64,000 nt of DNA from an uncultured Chthonomonadaceae bacterium (GTDB lineage Bacteria; Armatimonadota; Chthonomonadetes; Chthonomonadales; Chthonomonadaceae): contig CAWFQB010000004.1 in NCBI GenBank assembly GCA_963817895.1, positions 896,001 to 960,000 of the forward strand. The letters run 5' to 3'. Both the position numbers and the translations under genes were made by a program. Of this stretch, positions 8,268 through 21,554 are shown one piece after another. The notes below the pieces were generated by a model. The model was not told where the DNA came from. It was given only the letters and a program-made list of their open reading frames with translations, and searched no databases. Each line of letters starts with the position of its first letter. The stretch's first letter is position 1.

Positions 8268-10252
8268 ATGTCCCAATCCGAACCGGATGGCTGTCCGCGC
8301 GATACGCTTGCGCAACTGCGCCAACAATATCCTGACGCCCCCTTTCTGGCGTTGGGGCAAACCGTTTTTTGGGACGAGCCGGTCAAGGCCGCGTTGCGGA
8401 AGCTGCTGGATGACAATCATCTCGGCGGGCACATGGTGTTGGGCGTTCACGATACGGATTATTTCGCCAAAGCGCACTTGCCCCATGCCCGGCAGGGACG
8501 TTTCGCGCTCATGCCCCATAACGACGGCAGCACCAAATCGCTGTGGTCGGCGGCAGGCGAAATCTCTACCCTGTTCGGCAGCGAAACGTTTCCCACGCGG
8601 CAGGATTACGTGCGCTGCGGCGTCGCGTTTCGCAAGCTGGCGCGCGCGCATCCCGGACGGGCCGCAGGCGTTTCTGGACGCAATGACCGAAGCGTGGGGC
8701 TGGCGCGGACTGGTGTATACCGGTTCGCGTGACCTGATTGTGCATTATCTGCCTCTGCGGGAGGTCGGCGACGGCCTGCTGGAAATGCTGAAGTGGGGAT
8801 TTGAGAACGCGCTGGCGCAGGTTGTTCCCGGCTGCTGTCAGGACGAGGCGAAAAACGTTACGGAAACCATTGCTCGGCTGGTGTCAGCAGTTCCGCGCAG
8901 GCGCAACCCGGAGAAAACCCTTTCCGACCTGTTCCAGTATTTGCTGCCTCTGTTTTATACCATGCTGCTCGGCGCGGACCCGCAAAATATCAGCGTGGAT
9001 TGCACCACGAACCTGCTGCGCCTGACCCCGCAAACCGCGCATCTGCCCCGCTTCCGCTTTGTAGATTTGTTTCTGAACCCCGCAACCCGCGAACATCGCG
9101 CTTCACGCCTATAATACCGCGCTGGCCGGTTCAGAAATTTATACGCTTGACCGCTTTGGCGCGGGCGCATTGCCATTCGATGTGATTTTGCCGGAACGCG
9201 GGCGGGGAACCCTGCGCGTGACGCCGCGCGTGTTGTTCGTGGAAACACGCCAACCCGTCGCCATCGGCCTGAAAAAGCCGGTCGAATCCGTACAGGAATT
9301 GGCAGAAATCCTGAACCGCAAATTGGGCGATCAGGTAACGCTTGTCGGTAAAGCCGTATCCCTCGTTTCCATGCTGGCGCAGGAATTTATCTTTGTTTTT
9401 AGCGAAGAGGGTTCCCTGTACGTGCGCCGAACCCGGCAGATGAACGACATGCTGGCCGCGCAGGGCATCTCATTGGACATGCGCCCTATACTGCGGATGC
9501 GCTATCATACGTGGGACGCGCTTGCTGTGGGCAAATCCACGCTAACTCCCACGCCGCACCTTGCCGCCACATTTGGACAGCCGACAATTACGACCCCGGA
9601 GTTCGCGTCACAATGGAAGCAGGTAGTTCAGGAGCAGCGGCAATTATGTGAGCAGATCGCGCTGGTACATAAGCCCTCAGAACTGCTGCAATTTCTACAG
9701 GCGCGGAGTGGGGGAGAAGATTGGGAAGAGCAGGCGCGCGTTTATTCGCAGGCCCGACAACTCCTCTGCGAATATCGGGAACAGACGGCCGCCATTCAGC
9801 AGCAGGTTGACGCGCTGTACGCCACGCGAAAACAACTAAAACAACGCAGCCGGGACACGCAGCAGGCGCAGGGCGAACATTTTCGGAGCGTAACCGAATG
9901 GACGCCCGATGAGATTGCCCGCCGCGCCGCCTACGAGGGTGAAACCAGAGACTTGATGCTTCAAAAGCGCGTCGTATGCAGCGAAATCAATAGCCTGAAA
10001 CAGCGCCGCTACTCCATTGAGCGCGGCCCGGACGTTGAACAGACGCGCGAAAGATTGGCGCAGATCGAAACGCGAGCGGAAATGGCCCGCCTGCAACTGG
10101 TACGCAACGCCCTGCTCACCACTGAGGGCCTGACCCATACCAATCATCGTCCGTCCGTCTGGTGGCTGCCCATTCTCGACCCATCCGGCGACTGGTTCCG
10201 CCGCCTCGCCGATACGGCGGAAGTGTATACGGAGCCGTTGCTGTCACAGTAG
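8268..10252 (+). CDS. Large hypothetical protein (~660 aa) with C-terminal coiled coil (frameshifted, at least 3 fragments)
   Basis: ORFs 8268-8732, 8287-9114 and 9170-10252 overlap in register. Motifs [22 protein letters not shown] and HRP are present, and ~9600-10100 is a Gln/Arg-rich coiled coil. Confidence 0.7.
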
Positions 10253-10337
10253 GGAGTAGGTTGTAGGGGTAGGAAAAGCAATGTTCAACTTGTGAATTGC
10301 CCTACTCCCTACGCCCTGCGCCCTACTCCCTACTCCC
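10250..10337. repeat. Inverted heptamer arrays (GGGAGTA / TACTCCC family) filling the whole intergenic space
   Basis: Starts at the TAG stop and ends directly before ATG 10338. Confidence 0.85.
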
Positions 10338-12211
10338 ATGATTTCTCTACCCGACCATATTCCAGATTTACGCCGCTTGTACGGGTTCCGCGCCGTGATT
10401 GTGCTGCTGTTGAGCATGATTGGGCTGCGGCTATGGTACCTGCAGCTGGTGAAGAACGCGGAACTGGCGGAACTGTCGCAGACGCAGAGCGTGAAAGCTG
10501 ATCCGCCGGGTGGCGCCGCGCGGCGTGATTATGGATTCAAAGGGCGAGATTCTGGCGACAAGCCGCGCCAAGTTCGTCGTTTCGCTTTCCCCCGATGACG
10601 CGAAAAAACACCCGGAAACGCTGACGCGACTGGCTCTGCTGCTTGGCGCGAATGAGGATGACCTGCGCGACAAGGTTCTGCCCACGCGCATTGGCCCGAA
10701 CGGAAAAAAGATCGCGTTGCGGGGCAAGCCGTTCGACCCTGTTCCGCTGGATCGGGATGTCAGTATCAAAGTATTGTCGCAAATTGAGGAGCAGCGTCTG
10801 GATTTACCGGGCGTGATTGTCAGCCGCGACCCGGTGCGTTATTATAAAGATAATATGACGTGCGCCCATCTGCTTGGCGATACCGGCCTGATTAATGAAG
10901 AGCAGATGCGCAATCCAAAATACGCCAGTTATCATGGCGGCGATTACGTGGGGCGCGACGGACTGGAAGCGCATTACGAGCAGGAATTGCGCGGGGAGGA
11001 TGGTGGCGAGAATGTGACCGTAGACGCGCGGGGCCGGACGCTGCGCCGCGTATCGGAGAATACAGCCCCGCGCGGGGCATGGGCTGAAACTGGCGCTGGA
11101 TTTGAGTTTGCAGAAAGCGGCCTACAATCTGCTCAAGGAGCAGTTTGATGGCAAAAACCGGCGTAATCCCGGTTCGCATACAGGCGCGATTGTGGCTCTT
11201 GATCCCGCAAACGGCGAAGTGCTGGCGCTGGTCAGTATGCCCTCCTACGATCTGAACACGTTTGGGGAGAAATACGACGCGCTGAATGGCGATAAAACAA
11301 TGCCGCTGTTCAATCGGGCGACAAGCGCCGCGCTGCCATGCGGTTCGCCATTCAAATTGATTACGGCTGCGGCAGGATTGGAAATCGGGCAAAGCGAGTC
11401 AGTACACGACCTATTTTTGTCCCGGCTACAAGCGAATTGGCAACCGCATTTTCCATTGTGACGAGGTGCATCGCAATACGGCCTTTGAAAAAGCCATTGG
11501 CGCGTCGTGCAATGTGTATTTTTATACTGTCGGGCGAAGATGTGGGGCCGGACGCGCTGGCGGAATGGGCAAAGCGATTCGGATTGGGCAAAACGACGGG
11601 CATTGATCTGCCTTCTGGCAGGCCCGGTTTCATACCCACGCCTGCGTGGAAGCGCAAAGTTGCCAGCGACCCGGCCAATAAAATCTGGTATCCCGGCGAA
11701 ACAGCCAACATGTCCATCGGGCAGGGGGATTTGCAGGTAACGCCCATTCAACTGGCGAACTATACGGCAGCCCTTGCCAATGGCGGCACACTCTGGCGTC
11801 CGCATCTGGTACGCGCCATTGTGGATACGTCCGGGCCGAAGCCGACGGTCACGCAAACAATTGCCCCCGAAGCGCGGGGCGAATTGGGCTTGAAGCCCGA
11901 AAACTTGAACCTGATTGTGGCGGGGATGCGCAAAACTATGCAAAAGGGCGGCACGGCGTTCGCGTCCGCTATTCCCGGTTTGGACATCGCGGGCAAAACC
12001 GGCACGGTGGAAATTAAAAAGCAGCGTAATTCCGTGTTCGTGTGCTTTGCCGGCCTGCCCGGAGCAAAAGCCGAGTATCGCGCTTGCGGTTCTCGTCGAG
12101 GGCGGCGGCTACGGTTCCGAAACCGCCGCGCCCATCGCCCGCCGCCTGCTGGCGCAATATTTCCATATTCCCATCAGTCCCGTAGAAACCGTCGGCAACG
12201 CGCGGGATTAA
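10338..12211 (+). CDS. mrdA: Penicillin-binding protein 2 (class B; frameshifted, about 5 fragments)
   Basis: N-terminal TM with RLWYLQL, APRGVI.D..G, G..GLE..YE..LRG, GEVLALVSMPSYD; SxxK (GSPFK), SCNVYFY and AGKTGT active-site motifs. Confidence 0.9.
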
Positions 12212-12274: not shown

Positions 12275-13507
12275 ATGTTGCAAAATAAGCCTGTTGTGGA
12301 AGAGAATGAACAGCAAGTTGTGTCACGGCGCGGCTTTGTCGCAGGTGTTGCGGCGGCAGTCACATTGCCCCTGTTGACGCAAACGGAAGCGGGCGCGCAA
12401 ACCCCCGTATTACAGCCGGATCGAACCATACGGCCTGCGCCTGCCCAAACCGCCGCCAAACTGATTACCCGGCAGCGGGAACCGGAAAATCTGGAATTCA
12501 ACTTTGCCACGCTGGATAATTTTCTCACGCCCAACGACCGCTTTTACGTGCGCAGCCACTTTGCCACGCCCAATCTTGACGCCGATAAATGGCAGTTGCG
12601 GATAGAGGGAGCCGTAGAGCGTCCGTTTACCATTTCTTACGCTGAATTGCGGCAGATGCCGTCGCGTAAATTACAAACCACGCTGGAGTGCGCCGGGAAC
12701 GGACGGGTTGCGCTGGTTCCTCCTGCAAACGGCGTTCAATGGGATTTGGGCGGGGTCAGCACGGCGGAATGGACGGGCGTGCCGCTGTCTACGCTGCTGG
12801 CGCGGGCCGGTATTCGCCCCGAAGCCGTAGACGTGGTTCTAGAGGGAGCGGATACAGGAGAAATCAAAACTACGCCCCGACCGGCGGGAGCGATCCACTA
12901 TGCCCGCAGCCTGCCATTGGAACGGGCGCGGCAACAGGACGTGATTTTAGCGACAAAAATGAACGGCAGCGATCTGCCGATTTCGCACGGTTTTCCTGTT
13001 CGCGCTATTGTGCCGGGTTGGTACGGCATGGCGTCCGTGAAGTGGCTGACGCGCATTTTGGTGCTGCCGCAAGCGTTTCAGGGCTATTTCCAGACCATTG
13101 ATTACGCGATATGGGAGCGGCAAGAAGGGGTTGCGCGGCGTGTTCCCATAACCAGTATGCAGGTGAAAGCGAGTATTGCGCGTCCCTCTTTCCGGGAAAT
13201 GGTTCGCGCCGGGAGCGCGTATCGTATTTACGGCGCGGCATGGGCGGGTGACAGCGCGGTGACAAAGGTGGAGATCAGCGTGAACGGCGGCCAATCGTGG
13301 CAGCCCGCCCGCCTGAACAATCTGCCGGTTCCTTACACATGGCGCTTCTGGGAGTACGAATGGCGTGTCCCCATGCAGGCAGGACGCTACGCGATTATGG
13401 CGCGGGCAACGGACGCGAAGGGCAACACACAGCCCATGCAGCGCGACGCCGACCGCGAAAACTACATGATCAACCATGTTGTACCGGTGGAAGTGGAAGT
13501 CAGTTGA
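12275..13507 (+). CDS. Tat-exported sulfite oxidase-family molybdoenzyme
   Basis: SRRGFV Tat motif; FYVRSH, LECAGNGR (Mo-ligand Cys), HGFPVRAIVPGWYGMASVKWL; C-terminal dimerisation domain. Confidence 0.92.
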   Translation: MLQNKPVVEENEQQVVSRRGFVAGVAAAVTLPLLTQTEAGAQTPVLQPDRTIRPAPAQTAAKLITRQREPENLEFNFATLDNFLTPNDRFYVRSHFATPNLDADKWQLRIEGAVERPFTISYAELRQMPSRKLQTTLECAGNGRVALVPPANGVQWDLGGVSTAEWTGVPLSTLLARAGIRPEAVDVVLEGADTGEIKTTPRPAGAIHYARSLPLERARQQDVILATKMNGSDLPISHGFPVRAIVPGWYGMASVKWLTRILVLPQAFQGYFQTIDYAIWERQEGVARRVPITSMQVKASIARPSFREMVRAGSAYRIYGAAWAGDSAVTKVEISVNGGQSWQPARLNNLPVPYTWRFWEYEWRVPMQAGRYAIMARATDAKGNTQPMQRDADRENYMINHVVPVEVEVS

Positions 13508-13582
13508 GATAGGAGATACAAGATACGAGATACGAGTAGCCCAGACTTGTATCTCGTATCTTGTATCTCCTATCTCCTATCT
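13506..13582. repeat. Inverted heptamer arrays (GAGATAC / GTATCTC family)
   Basis: GAGATAGGAGATACAAGATACGAGATACGAG...GTATCTCGTATCTTGTATCTCCTATCTCCTATCT; same family at 39526-39635. Confidence 0.85.
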
Positions 13583-13586
13583 AATC

Positions 13587-14879
13587 ATGACCCTGAACAT
13601 ACAGCAAAACGGAATAGTGTTTCGGCAGGAGGACGGGAATGTGACCATTCATCGTCCCGGCAAGAGCGGCAACGGCGGCGTGGAAATCGAGGTTGGCGAG
13701 GAGCTTGCTGAAGCATGGCGGCTGGCGACGGGCGATGTTGTGGAGGGCGTGACGGAAGCCTTTGACAATGTGCAGGCCGTTTCGGAGGCCAGCCCGGAGT
13801 GGTACGAACAGTACGATTTTCAGGATGAGGAGCAGCGCGACGAACCCAACTATGCGCGGGGCGGTTCGGTTCCCGCATGGCTCATAGAACACGTCCTGCC
13901 AAGCGAGCGGCTTGTATCCATTATCCGCGTCAACGGCCTTGAACAGGAGGACGCCGACGAACGCCCGTTTCCGCGCAAGCGTAACAACGCCGAGCGGAGT
14001 TCGCCGGAGCGTCGTCTTTCCCTCGCGGTTCGTTCCTCCGATACGACGGGCAGGATGCTGGATTTTGCCGCCACACTGGGCGCGGGCTGTGTCGGCATCA
14101 TACATGGCCCTCATGCCAGTGGCCTGACTCGCACTCTGGAATCTGTTGTTGCGGGCGTAAGCGTGAACGCCCCGGATGTAGTTGTCCTCGTGCTGCTGTT
14201 GCGGGCGCGAGGCGAAGAGATGACGGAGTGGCGGCGCAAGTTTCCCAACGCCGATGTCGTGGTGTGTTCCTCGTCCTCATCTCCATCCGTAAGCGCGGCA
14301 GAGCGGACGGTGCGGCTGGCCGATATGACGCTGGCCTGTGCGCAGCGGCAAACGGAATTGGGGCGGCACGTCCTGTTGGCGGTTGACTCGCTCACGGGCT
14401 TGTGGGGCGCGATGCTGGAAGCGGAACACGCGGATACGCAGCGCGAAGCGGACCTGTCGAATGCCCGCTACCGAATGCGCGAATGGGTACAGAAGGCGGG
14501 CAATTTCGGCGGGCCGGGGCTGCTCGGCTCGGCTTTGGGCGGCTCGCTGACGCTGGCAGGAACGATGTGGCAGCAGCCCGTAGACGCGGAAGCGGAAGAG
14601 GAACGCGACATTCACCCGCATTTGCGCCTGATGGAGCATCTCCTGCACGAAACCAACTGGCGCGTTCCGCTGTCCCCGGTATTGATGCGCGAACGGCTGT
14701 TTCCCGCCATTGACACGGCGCGTTGCCTGTCACAACCGGAAGAAAAACTGCTGCCGCCCGACGAATACGAGAAACTGCTGGCGGCGCGGGCAAAACTTGT
14801 TCGACTGGACTTGCTTGCTCGCCATAATGCGCTTCTGGATACGCTCGAACTCGACCCAGGACAACAGCCAACTGGTTGA
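13587..14879 (+). CDS. Transcription termination factor Rho-like protein with degenerate ATPase site
   Basis: Collinear with Rho: LATGDVVEG, GRMLDFAATLGAG..GII.GP..SG.T, VLVLLL.AR.EE.TE, RQ.ELGRHVLLAVDSLT, GSLT, R.FPAID...EEKLL. The Walker A Lys, catalytic Glu and Arg finger are substituted. Confidence 0.85.
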   Translation: MTLNIQQNGIVFRQEDGNVTIHRPGKSGNGGVEIEVGEELAEAWRLATGDVVEGVTEAFDNVQAVSEASPEWYEQYDFQDEEQRDEPNYARGGSVPAWLIEHVLPSERLVSIIRVNGLEQEDADERPFPRKRNNAERSSPERRLSLAVRSSDTTGRMLDFAATLGAGCVGIIHGPHASGLTRTLESVVAGVSVNAPDVVVLVLLLRARGEEMTEWRRKFPNADVVVCSSSSSPSVSAAERTVRLADMTLACAQRQTELGRHVLLAVDSLTGLWGAMLEAEHADTQREADLSNARYRMREWVQKAGNFGGPGLLGSALGGSLTLAGTMWQQPVDAEAEEERDIHPHLRLMEHLLHETNWRVPLSPVLMRERLFPAIDTARCLSQPEEKLLPPDEYEKLLAARAKLVRLDLLARHNALLDTLELDPGQQPTG

Positions 14880-14902: not shown

Positions 14903-15292
14903 ATGCGTAACCTGTCTGTCTGGTGGTCAACACGAAAACCCCGGCATTTATCAACGCCTGCGGCTCTCTTAATTCTATTCGTCTGTGTGCCTGTAGTGTT
15001 CTATCCGATTGTAGCGCTTCAAAGTTACTTGTATGCGCGCGAACACACGCACAAATGGCACGAGGCAAGTTTGTTAAGCGCGGAAAAGCAATACTATACA
15101 GCGCATGGCGTTTTTGTATTTGGTACGGATGCGGAACTGCTTCCGCTCATGACAAGCAGCATGACGGAAAACCCCGGCATTTGTCCACGCGGCGGCCATC
15201 ATTCTGTGATAAAATATAGCACGGGTGAAATACGAGTTCGGTGCAGTTTGAAGGAGGGGCGAGGTTCCGTCCTGAAGCCGCCGGGCAAGTGA
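14903..15292 (+). CDS. Pilin/pseudopilin-like small membrane-anchored protein
   Basis: Single N-terminal TM, A..QYY...G helix, C-terminal CP.GG...Y...G.IRVRCS disulfide loop; SD GGAGAGG. Confidence 0.5.
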   Translation: MRNLSVWWSTRKPRHLSTPAALLILFVCVPVVFYPIVALQSYLYAREHTHKWHEASLLSAEKQYYTAHGVFVFGTDAELLPLMTSSMTENPGICPRGGHHSVIKYSTGEIRVRCSLKEGRGSVLKPPGK

Positions 15293-15333
15293 TTTTCCGA
15301 AAGCAAACGGATTGGAGTAGTAATACAGGATTC

Positions 15334-15735
15334 ATGGCAGCAAGAAAGAAGTATGGACGTATTCGCAATGCGCGGCAGAACGCCGCGCCGTTTCGCGCGC
15401 TGCTGTTGGTCGTGGCGCTGGGCGCGATTATGAGAATATCGCTTGCCGGCAGCGTCCATGACATGCAGCGAATGTCCTGCGATGGAATGCGCTACTATCT
15501 GGCGGGCGCGGAACAGACCTATCAGCGCAGGAACGGCCACTTTATTGTGGGGGGCGAGGACGCTTTGCAGGAACTGGTAAACGCCCACGCGATGCGGGCT
15601 TTGCCGCAGTGTAAAGCGGGCGGGCATTATGAGGCGGTTGCCAACGCCGACGGTTCCATCACCATCCATTGCAGCCTGCCCGAACACGACAAAGATCATG
15701 GCGTCACCCGTTCCGTCTGGCGTCACAGGCATTAG
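15334..15735 (+). CDS. Pilin/pseudopilin-like small protein, paralog of the upstream gene
   Basis: N-terminal TM, C...M...A.AEQTY..RNG.F, PQCKAGGHY...DGSITIHCS..EH. Confidence 0.5.
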   Translation: MAARKKYGRIRNARQNAAPFRALLLVVALGAIMRISLAGSVHDMQRMSCDGMRYYLAGAEQTYQRRNGHFIVGGEDALQELVNAHAMRALPQCKAGGHYEAVANADGSITIHCSLPEHDKDHGVTRSVWRHRH

Positions 15736-15825
15736 AGGCATTGGGCATCAGGTATTAGTAAAGAAGACACAAGCCCGATACCGAACACCGAACACCGAAC
15801 ACCGAATACCAAACACCTGAAACCT
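15736..15825. repeat. Heptamer array (CCGAACA family) with degenerate inverted partner
   Basis: CCGATACCGAACACCGAACACCGAACACCGAATACCAAACACCTGAAACC directly before the recN ATG; family recurs at 27515, 37134, 49286 and 50749. Confidence 0.85.
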
Positions 15826-15826
15826 T

Positions 15827-17526
15827 ATGTTACGTACGCTTTCCGTCCGAAATTTTGCCATCATTGACCGGCTTGATCTGGAATTCAGCGCGGGCTTTAA
15901 CGTGCTGACCGGCGAAACCGGGGCGGGCAAATCCATTCTCATGGACGCGCTGAACCTGATTTTAGGGGCGCGGCGCCGGGGCTGAAATGGTGCGCGGCGG
16001 CGCGGACCGGGCTACGATTGACGCCGTGTTCGATGTGCCTCCCGATTCGCATTTGCTGGGTATCATCGAGCGCATGGGCTATGAACTGGAAGACGACCAG
16101 TTGTTTCTGGCGCGTGAAGTATCCGCAGCCGGAAAGTCTACGTGCCGTATTGCGGGACGCCCCGCAACGGTATCGCAGTTGAAAGAGTTGGGCGACTGGC
16201 TGGTAGACCTGCACGGACAGCACGAGCATCAATCCCTGCTGGCGGTAGCGCGGCATCTGGATATGCTGGACGATTGGGGCGGCAAGCCCATTGCCGGACT
16301 GCGCGGACAGGTGGCGGAAGCGTATCAGGCCGTACAGAAATTGCGGCGGGAAAAGGAAGAGTTGGAACGCGACGCGAGGGAACGCGCCCATCTGCTCGAC
16401 CTGTACCAGTTTCAGGTGAAAGAGATAACGGAGGCCAAACTCGCGCCGGGTGAAGATGAAGAACTGGCAACCGAATACAAGCGCGTCGCCAATGCGCAAA
16501 AACTGGCCGAGTTCGGCGGGGGCGGCGGCGGAAGCCCTGACGGGCGGCGACAAGGGCGGCGGAGTGCTGGAAGCGCTTTCCCTTGCCCTGCGAACGCTGG
16601 AAGAGGCCGCGAGTTTGGATGACGCGCTAACTCCTGCATTAGAAGTCGTCCGGTCCGCAACATACGAACTGACCGAAACCGAGCGCGATTTAATCCGCTA
16701 TCAGGATACCGTTGAGTTCAACCCGGAGCGGCTGGAACAGATCGAGGAACGTCTGGAACTGCTGCGCAACCTGAAGCGCAAATACGGCGACAGCATTGAA
16801 GAGATTGTACAGTACGGGAAAGATACCGCCGCGAAACTGGATACGCTGACCAATTCCGAGGAGCGCGGGGCGCAACTGGACGCGGAAATCAAGAAGGGCA
16901 GCAAGAGACTGCGCGAATTGTGCGCCCAACTCAGCGACCTGCGCTGCAAAGCCGCGTTGGAGTTCCAAACCATCACGCTGACGGAATTGCGCGATCTGGC
17001 AATGGAAAAAACACGCTTTGAAGTGCACATCGCGCAGGGCGAACCGACCGCGAAAGGCGCGGACAAGGTAGAGTTTCTGATCGCCACCAATCCCGGCGAA
17101 CCTCTGCGTTCCCTTGCTAAAGTGGCGTCGGGCGGCGAAATTTCCCGCGTGATGCTTGCCATCAAGTCGGCGCTTGCGCGACAGGAACCCCTTCCGACAA
17201 TGGTTTTTGATGAGATAGATGTGGGCGTGGGCGGGCGCACGGCAAGCAAAATCGCGGAAAAACTGGCAACTCTGGCCCAAAACGCGCAGGTATTGTGCAT
17301 CACCCACCTTGCGCAGCTTGCCAGTAAGGGACAGCGGCATCTGTACATTGAAAAGAACGTGACAGGCGACCGCACCAATGTCACCGTCGTTCCCCTAACT
17401 CCCGAACAGCGCGTCACGGAAGTAGCTCGCATGATCGGCGGCGAAGGCATCACGGACGCCGTACTCCAACACGCCCGCGAAATGCTCACCACGTCAGTAG
17501 AAAAAGCAAAGACTAGCCGCAAATAA
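15827..17526 (+). CDS. recN: DNA repair protein RecN (2 frameshifts)
   Basis: [13 protein letters not shown]...[53 protein letters not shown]. Confidence 0.95.
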
Positions 17527-20423: not shown

Positions 20424-21554
20424 ATGACAGCAGAACCTTTAGACATACAAACAGAGAGACAAATGGAGATACAAGCCTATCTGCGCGGAAGCGGTATGCT
20501 GGAAGAACTGGCGCGCGATTTGGCAATTCGCCATACCCGGCATCCTGAGTACCTCAATCTGATACTGTTCAAGTACGACCAGATCAACAGCCCGATGGAC
20601 AACGCGCTCGTGCAGGAGTGTCGGGGTTTGATTCTGAATGAAACAGCAAACTGGCGCGTTGTCGCCCGCGCTTACAGCAAATTTTTCAACTATGGCGAAC
20701 CGAACGCGCCCGCGATAGAGTGGGCAACCGCCCGCGTTCAGGAGAAGGTAGACGGTACGCTATGCATCTTCTACCATTATAATAATCTGTGGCACGTCGC
20801 CACAACGGGAACGCCGGATGCTGGCGGCAGAGTGCATAACGGCGAACGCATTTTCCGCGACCTGATCTGGGAAACGGCGCGAAATTATCAACTGGAACTC
20901 CTTTCGTCCGCGCACTGCTATCTATTTGAACTGACAAGCCCCTACAACCGCGTTGTTGTGCCGCATGAGCAGTCGAGTCTCACATTGTTGGGGATACGGC
21001 AAACGGACAATGGTGACTGGATTGCATTGGAACAGGCGTCTCAATACGTGAGCGGTTCTGTTCCGGTTGTGCGGGAGTTCGCCTTTGATTCTCTGGCGGC
21101 TCTGTTTGCGTCTCTGGAAAACATCAATCCTCTGGAACAGGAGGGCTATGTGGTTGTGGATGGCGCAGACAATCGTATCAAAGTGAAACATCCACGCTAC
21201 GTTGCCCTGCATCTGCTCAAAGAATCGTTCAATGTCCGGGCTTACATTGAGGTATTGCGGGCAGGCGAAACGCCCGAATTGCTCACTTACTTTCCCGAAA
21301 TCGGCGCGGAATACGCCCCCATTCGCGCGGCTTACGAATCGCTGGCGGAAGAGATTGACAGCGATTATGCTCGCCTACAGCCTCTTTCCACTCAGAAAGA
21401 GTTCGCGCAATCCGCGCTTAAAACACGCTGTTCCGCCGCCCTGTTTGCAATCCGCGCGGGCGATTGCCGCGATGCGCGCGACTATCTGAGCCGCCGCGCT
21501 TCCGTTGTATCTGTCATGCGCCTGCTTGGATTGAAGGAGGAACCGCAGACTTAG
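20424..21554 (+). CDS. T4 Rnl1-like ATP-dependent RNA ligase (stand-alone)
   Basis: ECRGLIL...KFFNYGE, motif I EKVDGT, YLFEL.SPYNR, motif IV EGYVV, motif V RIKVK...Y..LH. Confidence 0.85.
   Translation: MTAEPLDIQTERQMEIQAYLRGSGMLEELARDLAIRHTRHPEYLNLILFKYDQINSPMDNALVQECRGLILNETANWRVVARAYSKFFNYGEPNAPAIEWATARVQEKVDGTLCIFYHYNNLWHVATTGTPDAGGRVHNGERIFRDLIWETARNYQLELLSSAHCYLFELTSPYNRVVVPHEQSSLTLLGIRQTDNGDWIALEQASQYVSGSVPVVREFAFDSLAALFASLENINPLEQEGYVVVDGADNRIKVKHPRYVALHLLKESFNVRAYIEVLRAGETPELLTYFPEIGAEYAPIRAAYESLAEEIDSDYARLQPLSTQKEFAQSALKTRCSAALFAIRAGDCRDARDYLSRRASVVSVMRLLGLKEEPQT

Follow-up and report, generated by a model that had tools for sequence, protein, structure and literature searches.

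A candidate pseudo-ATPase family derived from transcription termination factor Rho, with acidic segments in place of the pore loops, in the Chthonomonadales

What remains of a Rho protein once its motor residues are gone, and what could it still do in a cell that keeps a normal Rho? This question is raised by a Rho-like gene in a window of 64,000 nucleotides from the genome of an uncultured Chthonomonadaceae bacterium (contig CAWFQB010000004.1). A sequence-only reading had described it as an intact, full-length Rho paralog lacking the main ATPase residues, and had proposed a selected pseudo-ATPase that poisons or tunes the true Rho ring, or an RNA- or nucleotide-binding scaffold. The frame is indeed intact and Rho-derived, a single open frame encoding a pseudo-Rho protein of 430 aa (Table 1). 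Its start at 13587 is favoured by the median of 8 residues that precede Gly9 in family members (119 members), which makes an upstream ATG at 13476 an unlikely start. The protein is not full-length, because the N-terminal helix bundle of about 50 residues is absent: the canonical Rho of the same genome has 59 residues before the matching Gly, as against that median of 8 in the pseudo-Rho family.

Table 1 Features of the pseudo-Rho locus (window coordinates; aa, residues of the pseudo-Rho protein).
Feature	Position	Strand	Evidence
Perfect 32-bp hairpin of short repeats, directly upstream	13506..13576	.	z -11.6; blast
Pseudo-Rho gene, 430 aa, without N-terminal helix bundle	13587..14879	+	HMM, profile, structure
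OB-fold strands (aa 5-58), primary RNA site lost	13599..13760	+	profile alignment, family counts
Optional acidic insert (aa 59-106), last OB-fold loop	13761..13904	+	model, charge, family alignment
Re-coded connector (aa 126-140)	13962..14006	+	comparison with Rho, family counts
Degenerate Walker A GPHASGLT (aa 174-181)	14106..14129	+	alignment to E. coli Rho, family counts
Catalytic loop LLLRARGEE (aa 203-211)	14193..14219	+	alignment to E. coli Rho, family counts
Walker B AVDSLTG (AVDS = aa 265-268)	14379..14399	+	family counts
Q-loop region, now an acidic conserved segment (aa 273-291)	14403..14459	+	profile alignment, family counts, pN/pS
R-loop region, now a longer acidic segment ending His-Pro-His (aa 328-350)	14568..14636	+	model, profile alignment, family counts
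Arg-finger region CLSQPEE (aa 380-386)	14724..14744	+	alignment to E. coli Rho, family counts

The Rho ancestry was supported by every type of comparison. The protein matched Pfam PF00006, and Rho models were its best matches among HMMs, yet far under their cut-offs (TIGR00767, E 2.6e-25, 89.2 bits against 509.45; NF006886, 90.6 against 315). A profile-profile comparison with Rho gave a probability of 100 (E 9.1e-50), and a sequence search returned Rho at E 2.5e-45 against 5.9e-11 for the best non-Rho protein. The structure was predicted with a pLDDT of 92.2 and a pTM of 0.91, and Rho was found in all the Foldseek matches listed for this model. A better match to another RecA-type ATPase was looked for in a wide structure search, which gave M. 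tuberculosis Rho (Z 39.1, rmsd 2.6 over 350 residues) well ahead of the next fold (Z 26.3), and a search of the ESM Atlas returned nothing beyond Rho-family clusters. The model, structure search and profile agree that the OB fold and the RecA-type domain of Rho are both present. Over the whole protein, the median net charge is -21.5 in pseudo-Rho (n=30) versus -7 in Rho (n=57).

Residue numbering was fixed from residue 153 onward by an alignment with E. coli Rho, in which the pseudo-Rho motifs correspond to residues 178-185, 207-215, 263-266 and 363-369; residue counts refer to 143 aligned pseudo-Rho members, with denominators that vary by position. Rho positions are given in one-letter code and those of the present protein in three-letter code. 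The variants GPHASGLT, LLLRARGEE, AVDS and CLSQPEE, all named in the sequence-only reading, were present and aligned with their E. coli counterparts, and the loss of the Walker A Lys and the catalytic Glu proved to be family-wide. Lys occurs at K184 in 0/135 members (Leu in 127, Met in 5, Val in 2 and Arg in 1) and at K181 in 0/135, and the P180 position is His in 134/135. The P-loop retains G183 and T/S185 in 135/135, giving a family consensus of GPHGSGLT. At the catalytic loop, no member (0/138) has Glu at E211 and 126/138 carry Arg at D210, while R212 (the Arg valve), E214 and E215 are invariant (138/138). Walker B is kept as described, with D265 in 137/138 members, an aromatic residue persists at F355 in 135/137, and R269 is found in 0/138. 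The reported loss of the Arg finger applies to this protein, which has Gln at R366, but not to the family as a whole (Gln 50, Arg 48, other 40; n=138). The canonical Rho of the same order retains the ATPase motifs lost in pseudo-Rho. Judged from these residues, the motor appears dead across the whole family, and the residues and the model together make it very probable that pseudo-Rho is no RNA-dependent ATPase. Nucleotide binding is doubtful as well, because both P-loop lysines are lost, with T185, D265 and F355 kept.

At the primary RNA site, where the E. coli numbers below 153 are in part our own assignment from motif position, the equivalents of F62, F64, R66, Y80, R87 and R102 are all replaced. 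Three of them are mostly acidic (R87, Asp/Glu in 114/130; Y80, Glu in 86/130; R102, Glu in 94/128), the common states at F64 are non-aromatic, and K115 is also replaced. The primary-site positions are invariant or nearly so in the 58 canonical Rho proteins of the order. The remaining numbers below 153 follow the available text of Said et al. 2024 (PMC11018626), according to which R88E abolishes and K115E reduces RNA binding by Rho. The acidic insert noted earlier is real (aa 59-106, net charge -9), but it lies inside the OB fold rather than after it and is short or absent in 25/126 members; it has the lowest model confidence and the weakest constraint (pN/pS 0.62) in the protein.

Collinearity with Rho, which had been claimed throughout, breaks down in the HMM alignment between Walker B and residue 350. 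The Q- and R-loop regions cannot be aligned to Rho by HMM and are replaced by acidic segments of fixed length that are partly helical in the model. The Q-loop replacement has a median net charge of -5, with Ala at K283 in 136/140 members of the profile alignment; the R-loop replacement has a median of -6, with Trp at L320 in 139/140 and no Lys at K336 among 137 members. Their pN/pS values of 0.17 and 0.14, against 0.27 overall, place them among the most constrained parts of the protein, and 22 of the 68 positions conserved at ≥95% fall in aa 273-305 and 328-350. With a primary site that is lost or reversed in charge, and with acidic segments at both pore loops, RNA binding is an improbable role on these sequence grounds, and the earlier suggestion of an RNA-binding scaffold is not supported.

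The subunit interface and the drug pocket have also been rebuilt. Arg132 and Arg137 in the connector are invariant (132/132) where Rho has F133 and P138, Glu/Asp136 stands at Rho T137, the M219 position is Trp in 135/139 members, and R173 is lost; the canonical Rho of the order is unchanged at F133, P138, R173, F232 and D233 (58/58 or 59/59). Eleven bicyclomycin-pocket positions of Rho are listed in the available text of Moreira et al. 2024 (PMC11347177). At least 6 of these 11 are replaced family-wide in pseudo-Rho, namely P180 by His, K184 by Leu, D210 by Arg, E211 by Ala/Pro, R269 by Gly/Ala and L320 by Trp.

Searches for homologs yielded 143 pseudo-Rho proteins, of which the 120 listed are 45-92% identical. 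Among 1.84 billion representatives, a profile search recovered 16 pseudo-Rho members before the scores dropped, the next matches being 134 other Rho-like rows at ≤158 bits. The GTDB genome scan found 31 pseudo-Rho loci, 30 of them titled Chthonomonadales, Chthonomonadaceae or Chthonomonas and 1 only Armatimonadota. Within the order (Chthonomonadales in the named records), the gene is carried by 35/68 genomes and by 21/46 of those at ≥90% completeness. A sample of the phylum gave 26/401 carriers, all within two families, and 0/348 among the sampled genomes outside these families. Carriers have larger genomes, with completeness-corrected medians of 6.1 versus 4.5 Mb.

The source genome has a canonical rho on another contig (positions 224670-225950 of that contig, 615 bits, motifs intact), which answers the earlier call for this check. 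Across the family, canonical rho was present, whole or partial, in 33/35 carriers: it was complete with intact motifs in 32/35, partial at a contig end in 1, and not found in 2/35, whose genomes are 79% and 67% complete. Searching with TIGR00767 found no rho in 5/68 genomes of the order, the best matches there resembling rotary ATPase subunits; one of these genomes is 99% complete but in 120 contigs. Residue 97 of canonical Rho is Lys in 32/32 carriers versus Lys in 13 and Arg in 13 non-carriers, a contrast that may reflect chance or shared descent.

A phylogenetic tree of pseudo-Rho recovered most genera, with a weak split between the two families (support 52), and pseudo-Rho distances tracked Rho distances (Mantel r 0.63, p 0.001). 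On the Rho tree, the presence of the gene requires 12 changes; this fits an early gain followed by repeated loss, a count that by itself does not separate gain from loss. The stem branch of the family is long (1.59 changes per column). A free tree grouped pseudo-Rho with other long-branched degenerate Rho proteins, and descent from the order's own Rho was not rejected (AU p 0.25). Such a long stem together with newly invariant residues is what would be expected if the function changed and new constraint then set in. A phage origin was considered and rejected, the 4 phage records standing at 27% identity, the level of ordinary Rho. No fused form was found among 8000 longer candidates at E 1e-30, which is weak evidence.

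The genetic context analysis gave little indication of function. The co-oriented run that had been noted from pseudo-Rho to recN exists, but it recurs in only 4/32 loci, the source locus included, and is local synteny without functional weight. No recurring neighbour was detected in a Pfam scan of 80 of the 95 flanking ORFs (27 loci), no conserved upstream motif was seen by eye across 33 loci, and a promoter scan upstream of the gene stayed at chance level. The upstream hairpin has 292 blast matches genome-wide and is thus REP-like, not specific to the pseudo-Rho gene. Directly upstream, 12275-13507 encodes a sulfite-oxidase-family molybdoprotein with a twin-arginine-like leader, which is present in 1 of 3 other syntenic loci. 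Two small downstream ORFs, 14903-15292 and 15241-15735, are weakly alike, each combining a Cys pair with a hydrophobic stretch at the N terminus; they have no Pfam or NCBIfam match, and counterparts occur at one other pseudo-Rho locus. Further along, a chromosomal gene at 20424-21554 encodes a T4 RNA ligase 1-type domain (PF09511, E 5.5e-17) and immediately precedes mutS. The neighbours at 8268-12178 and 15821-17505, comprising an unknown gene, an mrdA-like gene and recN, align to intact orthologues as three to six fragments in changing frames, probably through assembly indels; the pseudo-Rho frame is unbroken.

Taken as a protein that kept the Rho fold, pseudo-Rho has probably acquired a new binding job. 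Our preferred reading, held tentatively and at somewhat less than an even chance on sequence and model, is that a Rho duplicate became a self-assembling acidic scaffold or decoy, a non-motor binding protein. Oligomerisation may have been retained, because R212, E214, E215 and the connector are strongly constrained, and it would be with itself through a re-coded interface: self-assembly is favoured because both interface faces have changed, with Rho unchanged at F133, P138, R173, F232 and D233. The connector would have gained Arg132, Glu136 and Arg137; on the receiving surface, Trp215 would be new and Glu210 and Glu211 retained. The pairing of residues across the interface is our assumption, based on Rho structures. 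Two reports place, in their available parts, the Rho connector (127-140) and H140 at the subunit interface (PMC11829017, PMC11018626). The product might be a ring or an open spiral whose pore, formed by the new Q- and R-loop motifs, and N-terminal crown are both acidic. It could bind a basic partner, the most plausible being a protein that itself binds nucleic acids, to which pseudo-Rho would serve as an RNA-like decoy or scaffold. Against self-pairing, R212, E214, E215 and T217 are exactly as in Rho, which also fits docking onto canonical Rho; acidity alone does not establish the partner, and pseudo-Rho could be monomeric.

The docking option leads to a dominant-negative or tuning subunit that would join or cap open Rho rings through its conserved P-loop face, a possible explanation that nevertheless seems on balance unlikely from the residues. 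The acidic pore loops would repel or mimic RNA, and the refilled pocket would hold the interface open, which would dampen termination in certain conditions. With its invariant R212, E214 and E215, the P-loop face partly resembles that of Rho, and the family-wide replacements fill the bicyclomycin pocket with His176, Leu180, Arg206 and Trp328; bicyclomycin itself prevents closure of the Rho ring, according to the available text of bioRxiv 10.1101/069773. Our own alignment offers a precedent by analogy, the non-catalytic A/V-ATPase B subunit having Leu at the Walker A Lys position. The presence of canonical rho in nearly all carriers agrees with this explanation, but says little because rho was found in most of the order's genomes, with or without the paralog. 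Furthermore, the connector face is re-coded with Rho unchanged, and the Arg finger that a ring neighbour needs is kept in only 48/138 members. The evolutionary rate of canonical Rho is lower in carriers (tip branch 0.119 versus 0.194, p 0.014), but most of this difference belongs to the lineages as a whole, since three control genes show it as well (root-to-tip p 0.007). Relative to the control genes, the Rho ratio gave p 0.19 at the tips and 0.035 for root-to-tip distances, which are non-independent, in 17 carriers versus 12 non-carriers. A Rho-specific constraint in carriers seemed to emerge with two control genes and faded with three and a control-only topology. Region-wise Rho divergence revealed no single patch, and a mutual-information scan gave phylogenetic noise. 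The full version of this idea, an endogenous anti-Rho in which a dead paralog caps or enters rings with a bicyclomycin-like plug and RNA-mimicking acidic loops and turns termination off, is likewise conceivable but rather unlikely.

Alternatively, the rebuilt cleft may hold a new ligand- or metal-binding site and pseudo-Rho may be an enzyme or sensor, which we consider improbable. His176, Arg206, Arg208, Asp267, Trp273, Trp328, Glu337, His343 and His345 are 90-100% conserved, several of them map to one pocket by bicyclomycin-site homology, and a metal could be bound by the His-Pro-His motif together with acidic residues. Packing that fills the cleft explains these conserved residues equally well, and the flanking ORFs scanned include no conserved enzyme neighbour. 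Still less probable is nucleotide binding or slow hydrolysis through substitute residues, for example in an ADP or (p)ppGpp sensor. The retention of G183, T/S185, D265, R212 and an aromatic at F355 would suit such a sensor, and stress nucleotides bind Rho at this site, as stated in the available text of PMC11829017. However, of the phosphate contacts named there (K181, K184 and R366), the two lysines are lost in all members and R366 in 90/138.

The gene is under purifying selection and is not decaying. In seven close, non-overlapping pairs, hand-picked from the tree, dN/dS was 0.11-0.23, each with Fisher p <1e-17; the source protein's own pair gave 0.145 for pseudo-Rho versus 0.022 for rho. 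The 74 of 496 pairs with pS <0.6 had a median dN/dS of 0.43 and values up to 0.69, the higher values stemming from distantly related pairs that approach saturation at synonymous sites. Several synonymous codons are used to maintain the replaced residues, four for Leu180 and four for Arg206. A decaying duplicate or an assembly artefact, to which the frame breaks in neighbouring genes, the absence from 33/68 genomes of the order and the higher dN/dS values might point, is therefore extremely improbable in view of the close pairs, the codon usage at replaced sites and a gene tree that follows that of Rho, and the selection signal rules out decay. The proposal of a selected pseudo-ATPase thus agrees with the orthologues, their conserved losses, the dN/dS values and the structural match to Rho.

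Among known systems, canonical Rho (TIGR00767, NF006886; PDB 3ice, 1pv4, 7oqh, 8hsj) is closest by sequence, profile and structure and has the same order of OB fold and RecA-type domain. Pseudo-Rho shares with it the Walker B Asp, the Arg valve, the P-loop backbone and the C-terminal helices. Unlike canonical Rho, it lacks the helix bundle as well as K181, K184, E211, R269 and K336 in all members, has lost the primary RNA site, and has acidic Q- and R-loops, a re-coded connector and an optional acidic insert. Like the Group B or Type 4 short Rho (NF041509, paralog_Rho2), it is a second rho-like gene without the N-terminal domain beside a complete Rho; it scored 75.5 against the NF041509 cut-off of 628. 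As far as the available text of Moreira et al. 2024 (PMC11347177) goes, Group B proteins keep the catalytic and RNP residues, of which pseudo-Rho keeps neither, and hetero-hexamers have been proposed for them. The same text describes the ATPase domain as highly conserved among functional Rho proteins and second copies as catalytically intact, and its sole Armatimonadota genome is Fimbriimonas, with one Rho, outside the pseudo-Rho carriers. By its defining residues, pseudo-Rho thus falls outside canonical Rho and Group B and reads as a Rho-derived pseudo-ATPase. A name such as 'transcription termination factor Rho' is attached to 16 of the 120 pseudo-Rho rows listed, and 7-10% of the proteins carry that label in a given source; it appears functionally wrong and calls for caution in annotation.

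Motor-dead Rho-like proteins are already briefly in print for other lineages. Those of Rubrobacteria and Thermoleophilia have likewise lost the catalytic Glu and the Q- and R-loops and were judged incapable of RNA translocation, in the portions of Moreira et al. 2024 and its supplement that were available (PMC11347177). According to the same portions, their N-terminal domain is still basic and their RNA-binding domain conserved, unlike in pseudo-Rho, and the two species are listed without a functional Rho, whereas pseudo-Rho sits beside an intact rho. Among our 134 other Rho-like matches, 114 show the full set of canonical residues, and in 8 the catalytic Glu is replaced (by Ala in 7 and Gln in 1), the latter with worn Q- and R-loops and spread over at least 3 clades; because these proteins are scattered over several clades, motor-dead Rho probably arose more than once. 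Literature searches, mostly of freely available papers, returned no description of the pseudo-Rho family. New here are the joint loss of ATP and RNA functions, the acidic and newly invariant pore loops, and the retention of a normal Rho in the same genomes, with the new invariant residues falling exactly at the pore, the interface and the drug pocket.

Acting alone, pseudo-Rho would show a helicase scaffold put to new use as an acidic binding ring. If its target is Rho, it would define a new class of termination regulators and offer a natural tool for studying ring closure. The Rho inhibitors Rof, Psu, YihE and Hfq would then share its outcome, a Rho held open and inactive; none of them is a Rho paralog in the available text of PMC12360218, and a contact between pseudo-Rho and Rho is hypothetical. 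A dead paralog from the same superfamily is found in A/V-type ATPases, whose subunit B has Gly-Leu in place of the Walker A Gly-Lys. The B subunits supply an Arg finger to their partner, a position that is variable in pseudo-Rho. SGSGLPHN replaces Walker A in subunit B, as given in the available text of bioRxiv 10.1101/2023.04.11.536006. The resemblance is one of analogy, since the pseudo-Rho structure matches Rho (Z 39.1) far better than it does NeqB (Z 26.1). Should the anti-Rho reading be true, pseudo-Rho would be to a transcription motor what non-catalytic subunits are to rotary ATPases, and would exemplify a wider pattern, given the degenerate Rho proteins in several separate clades.
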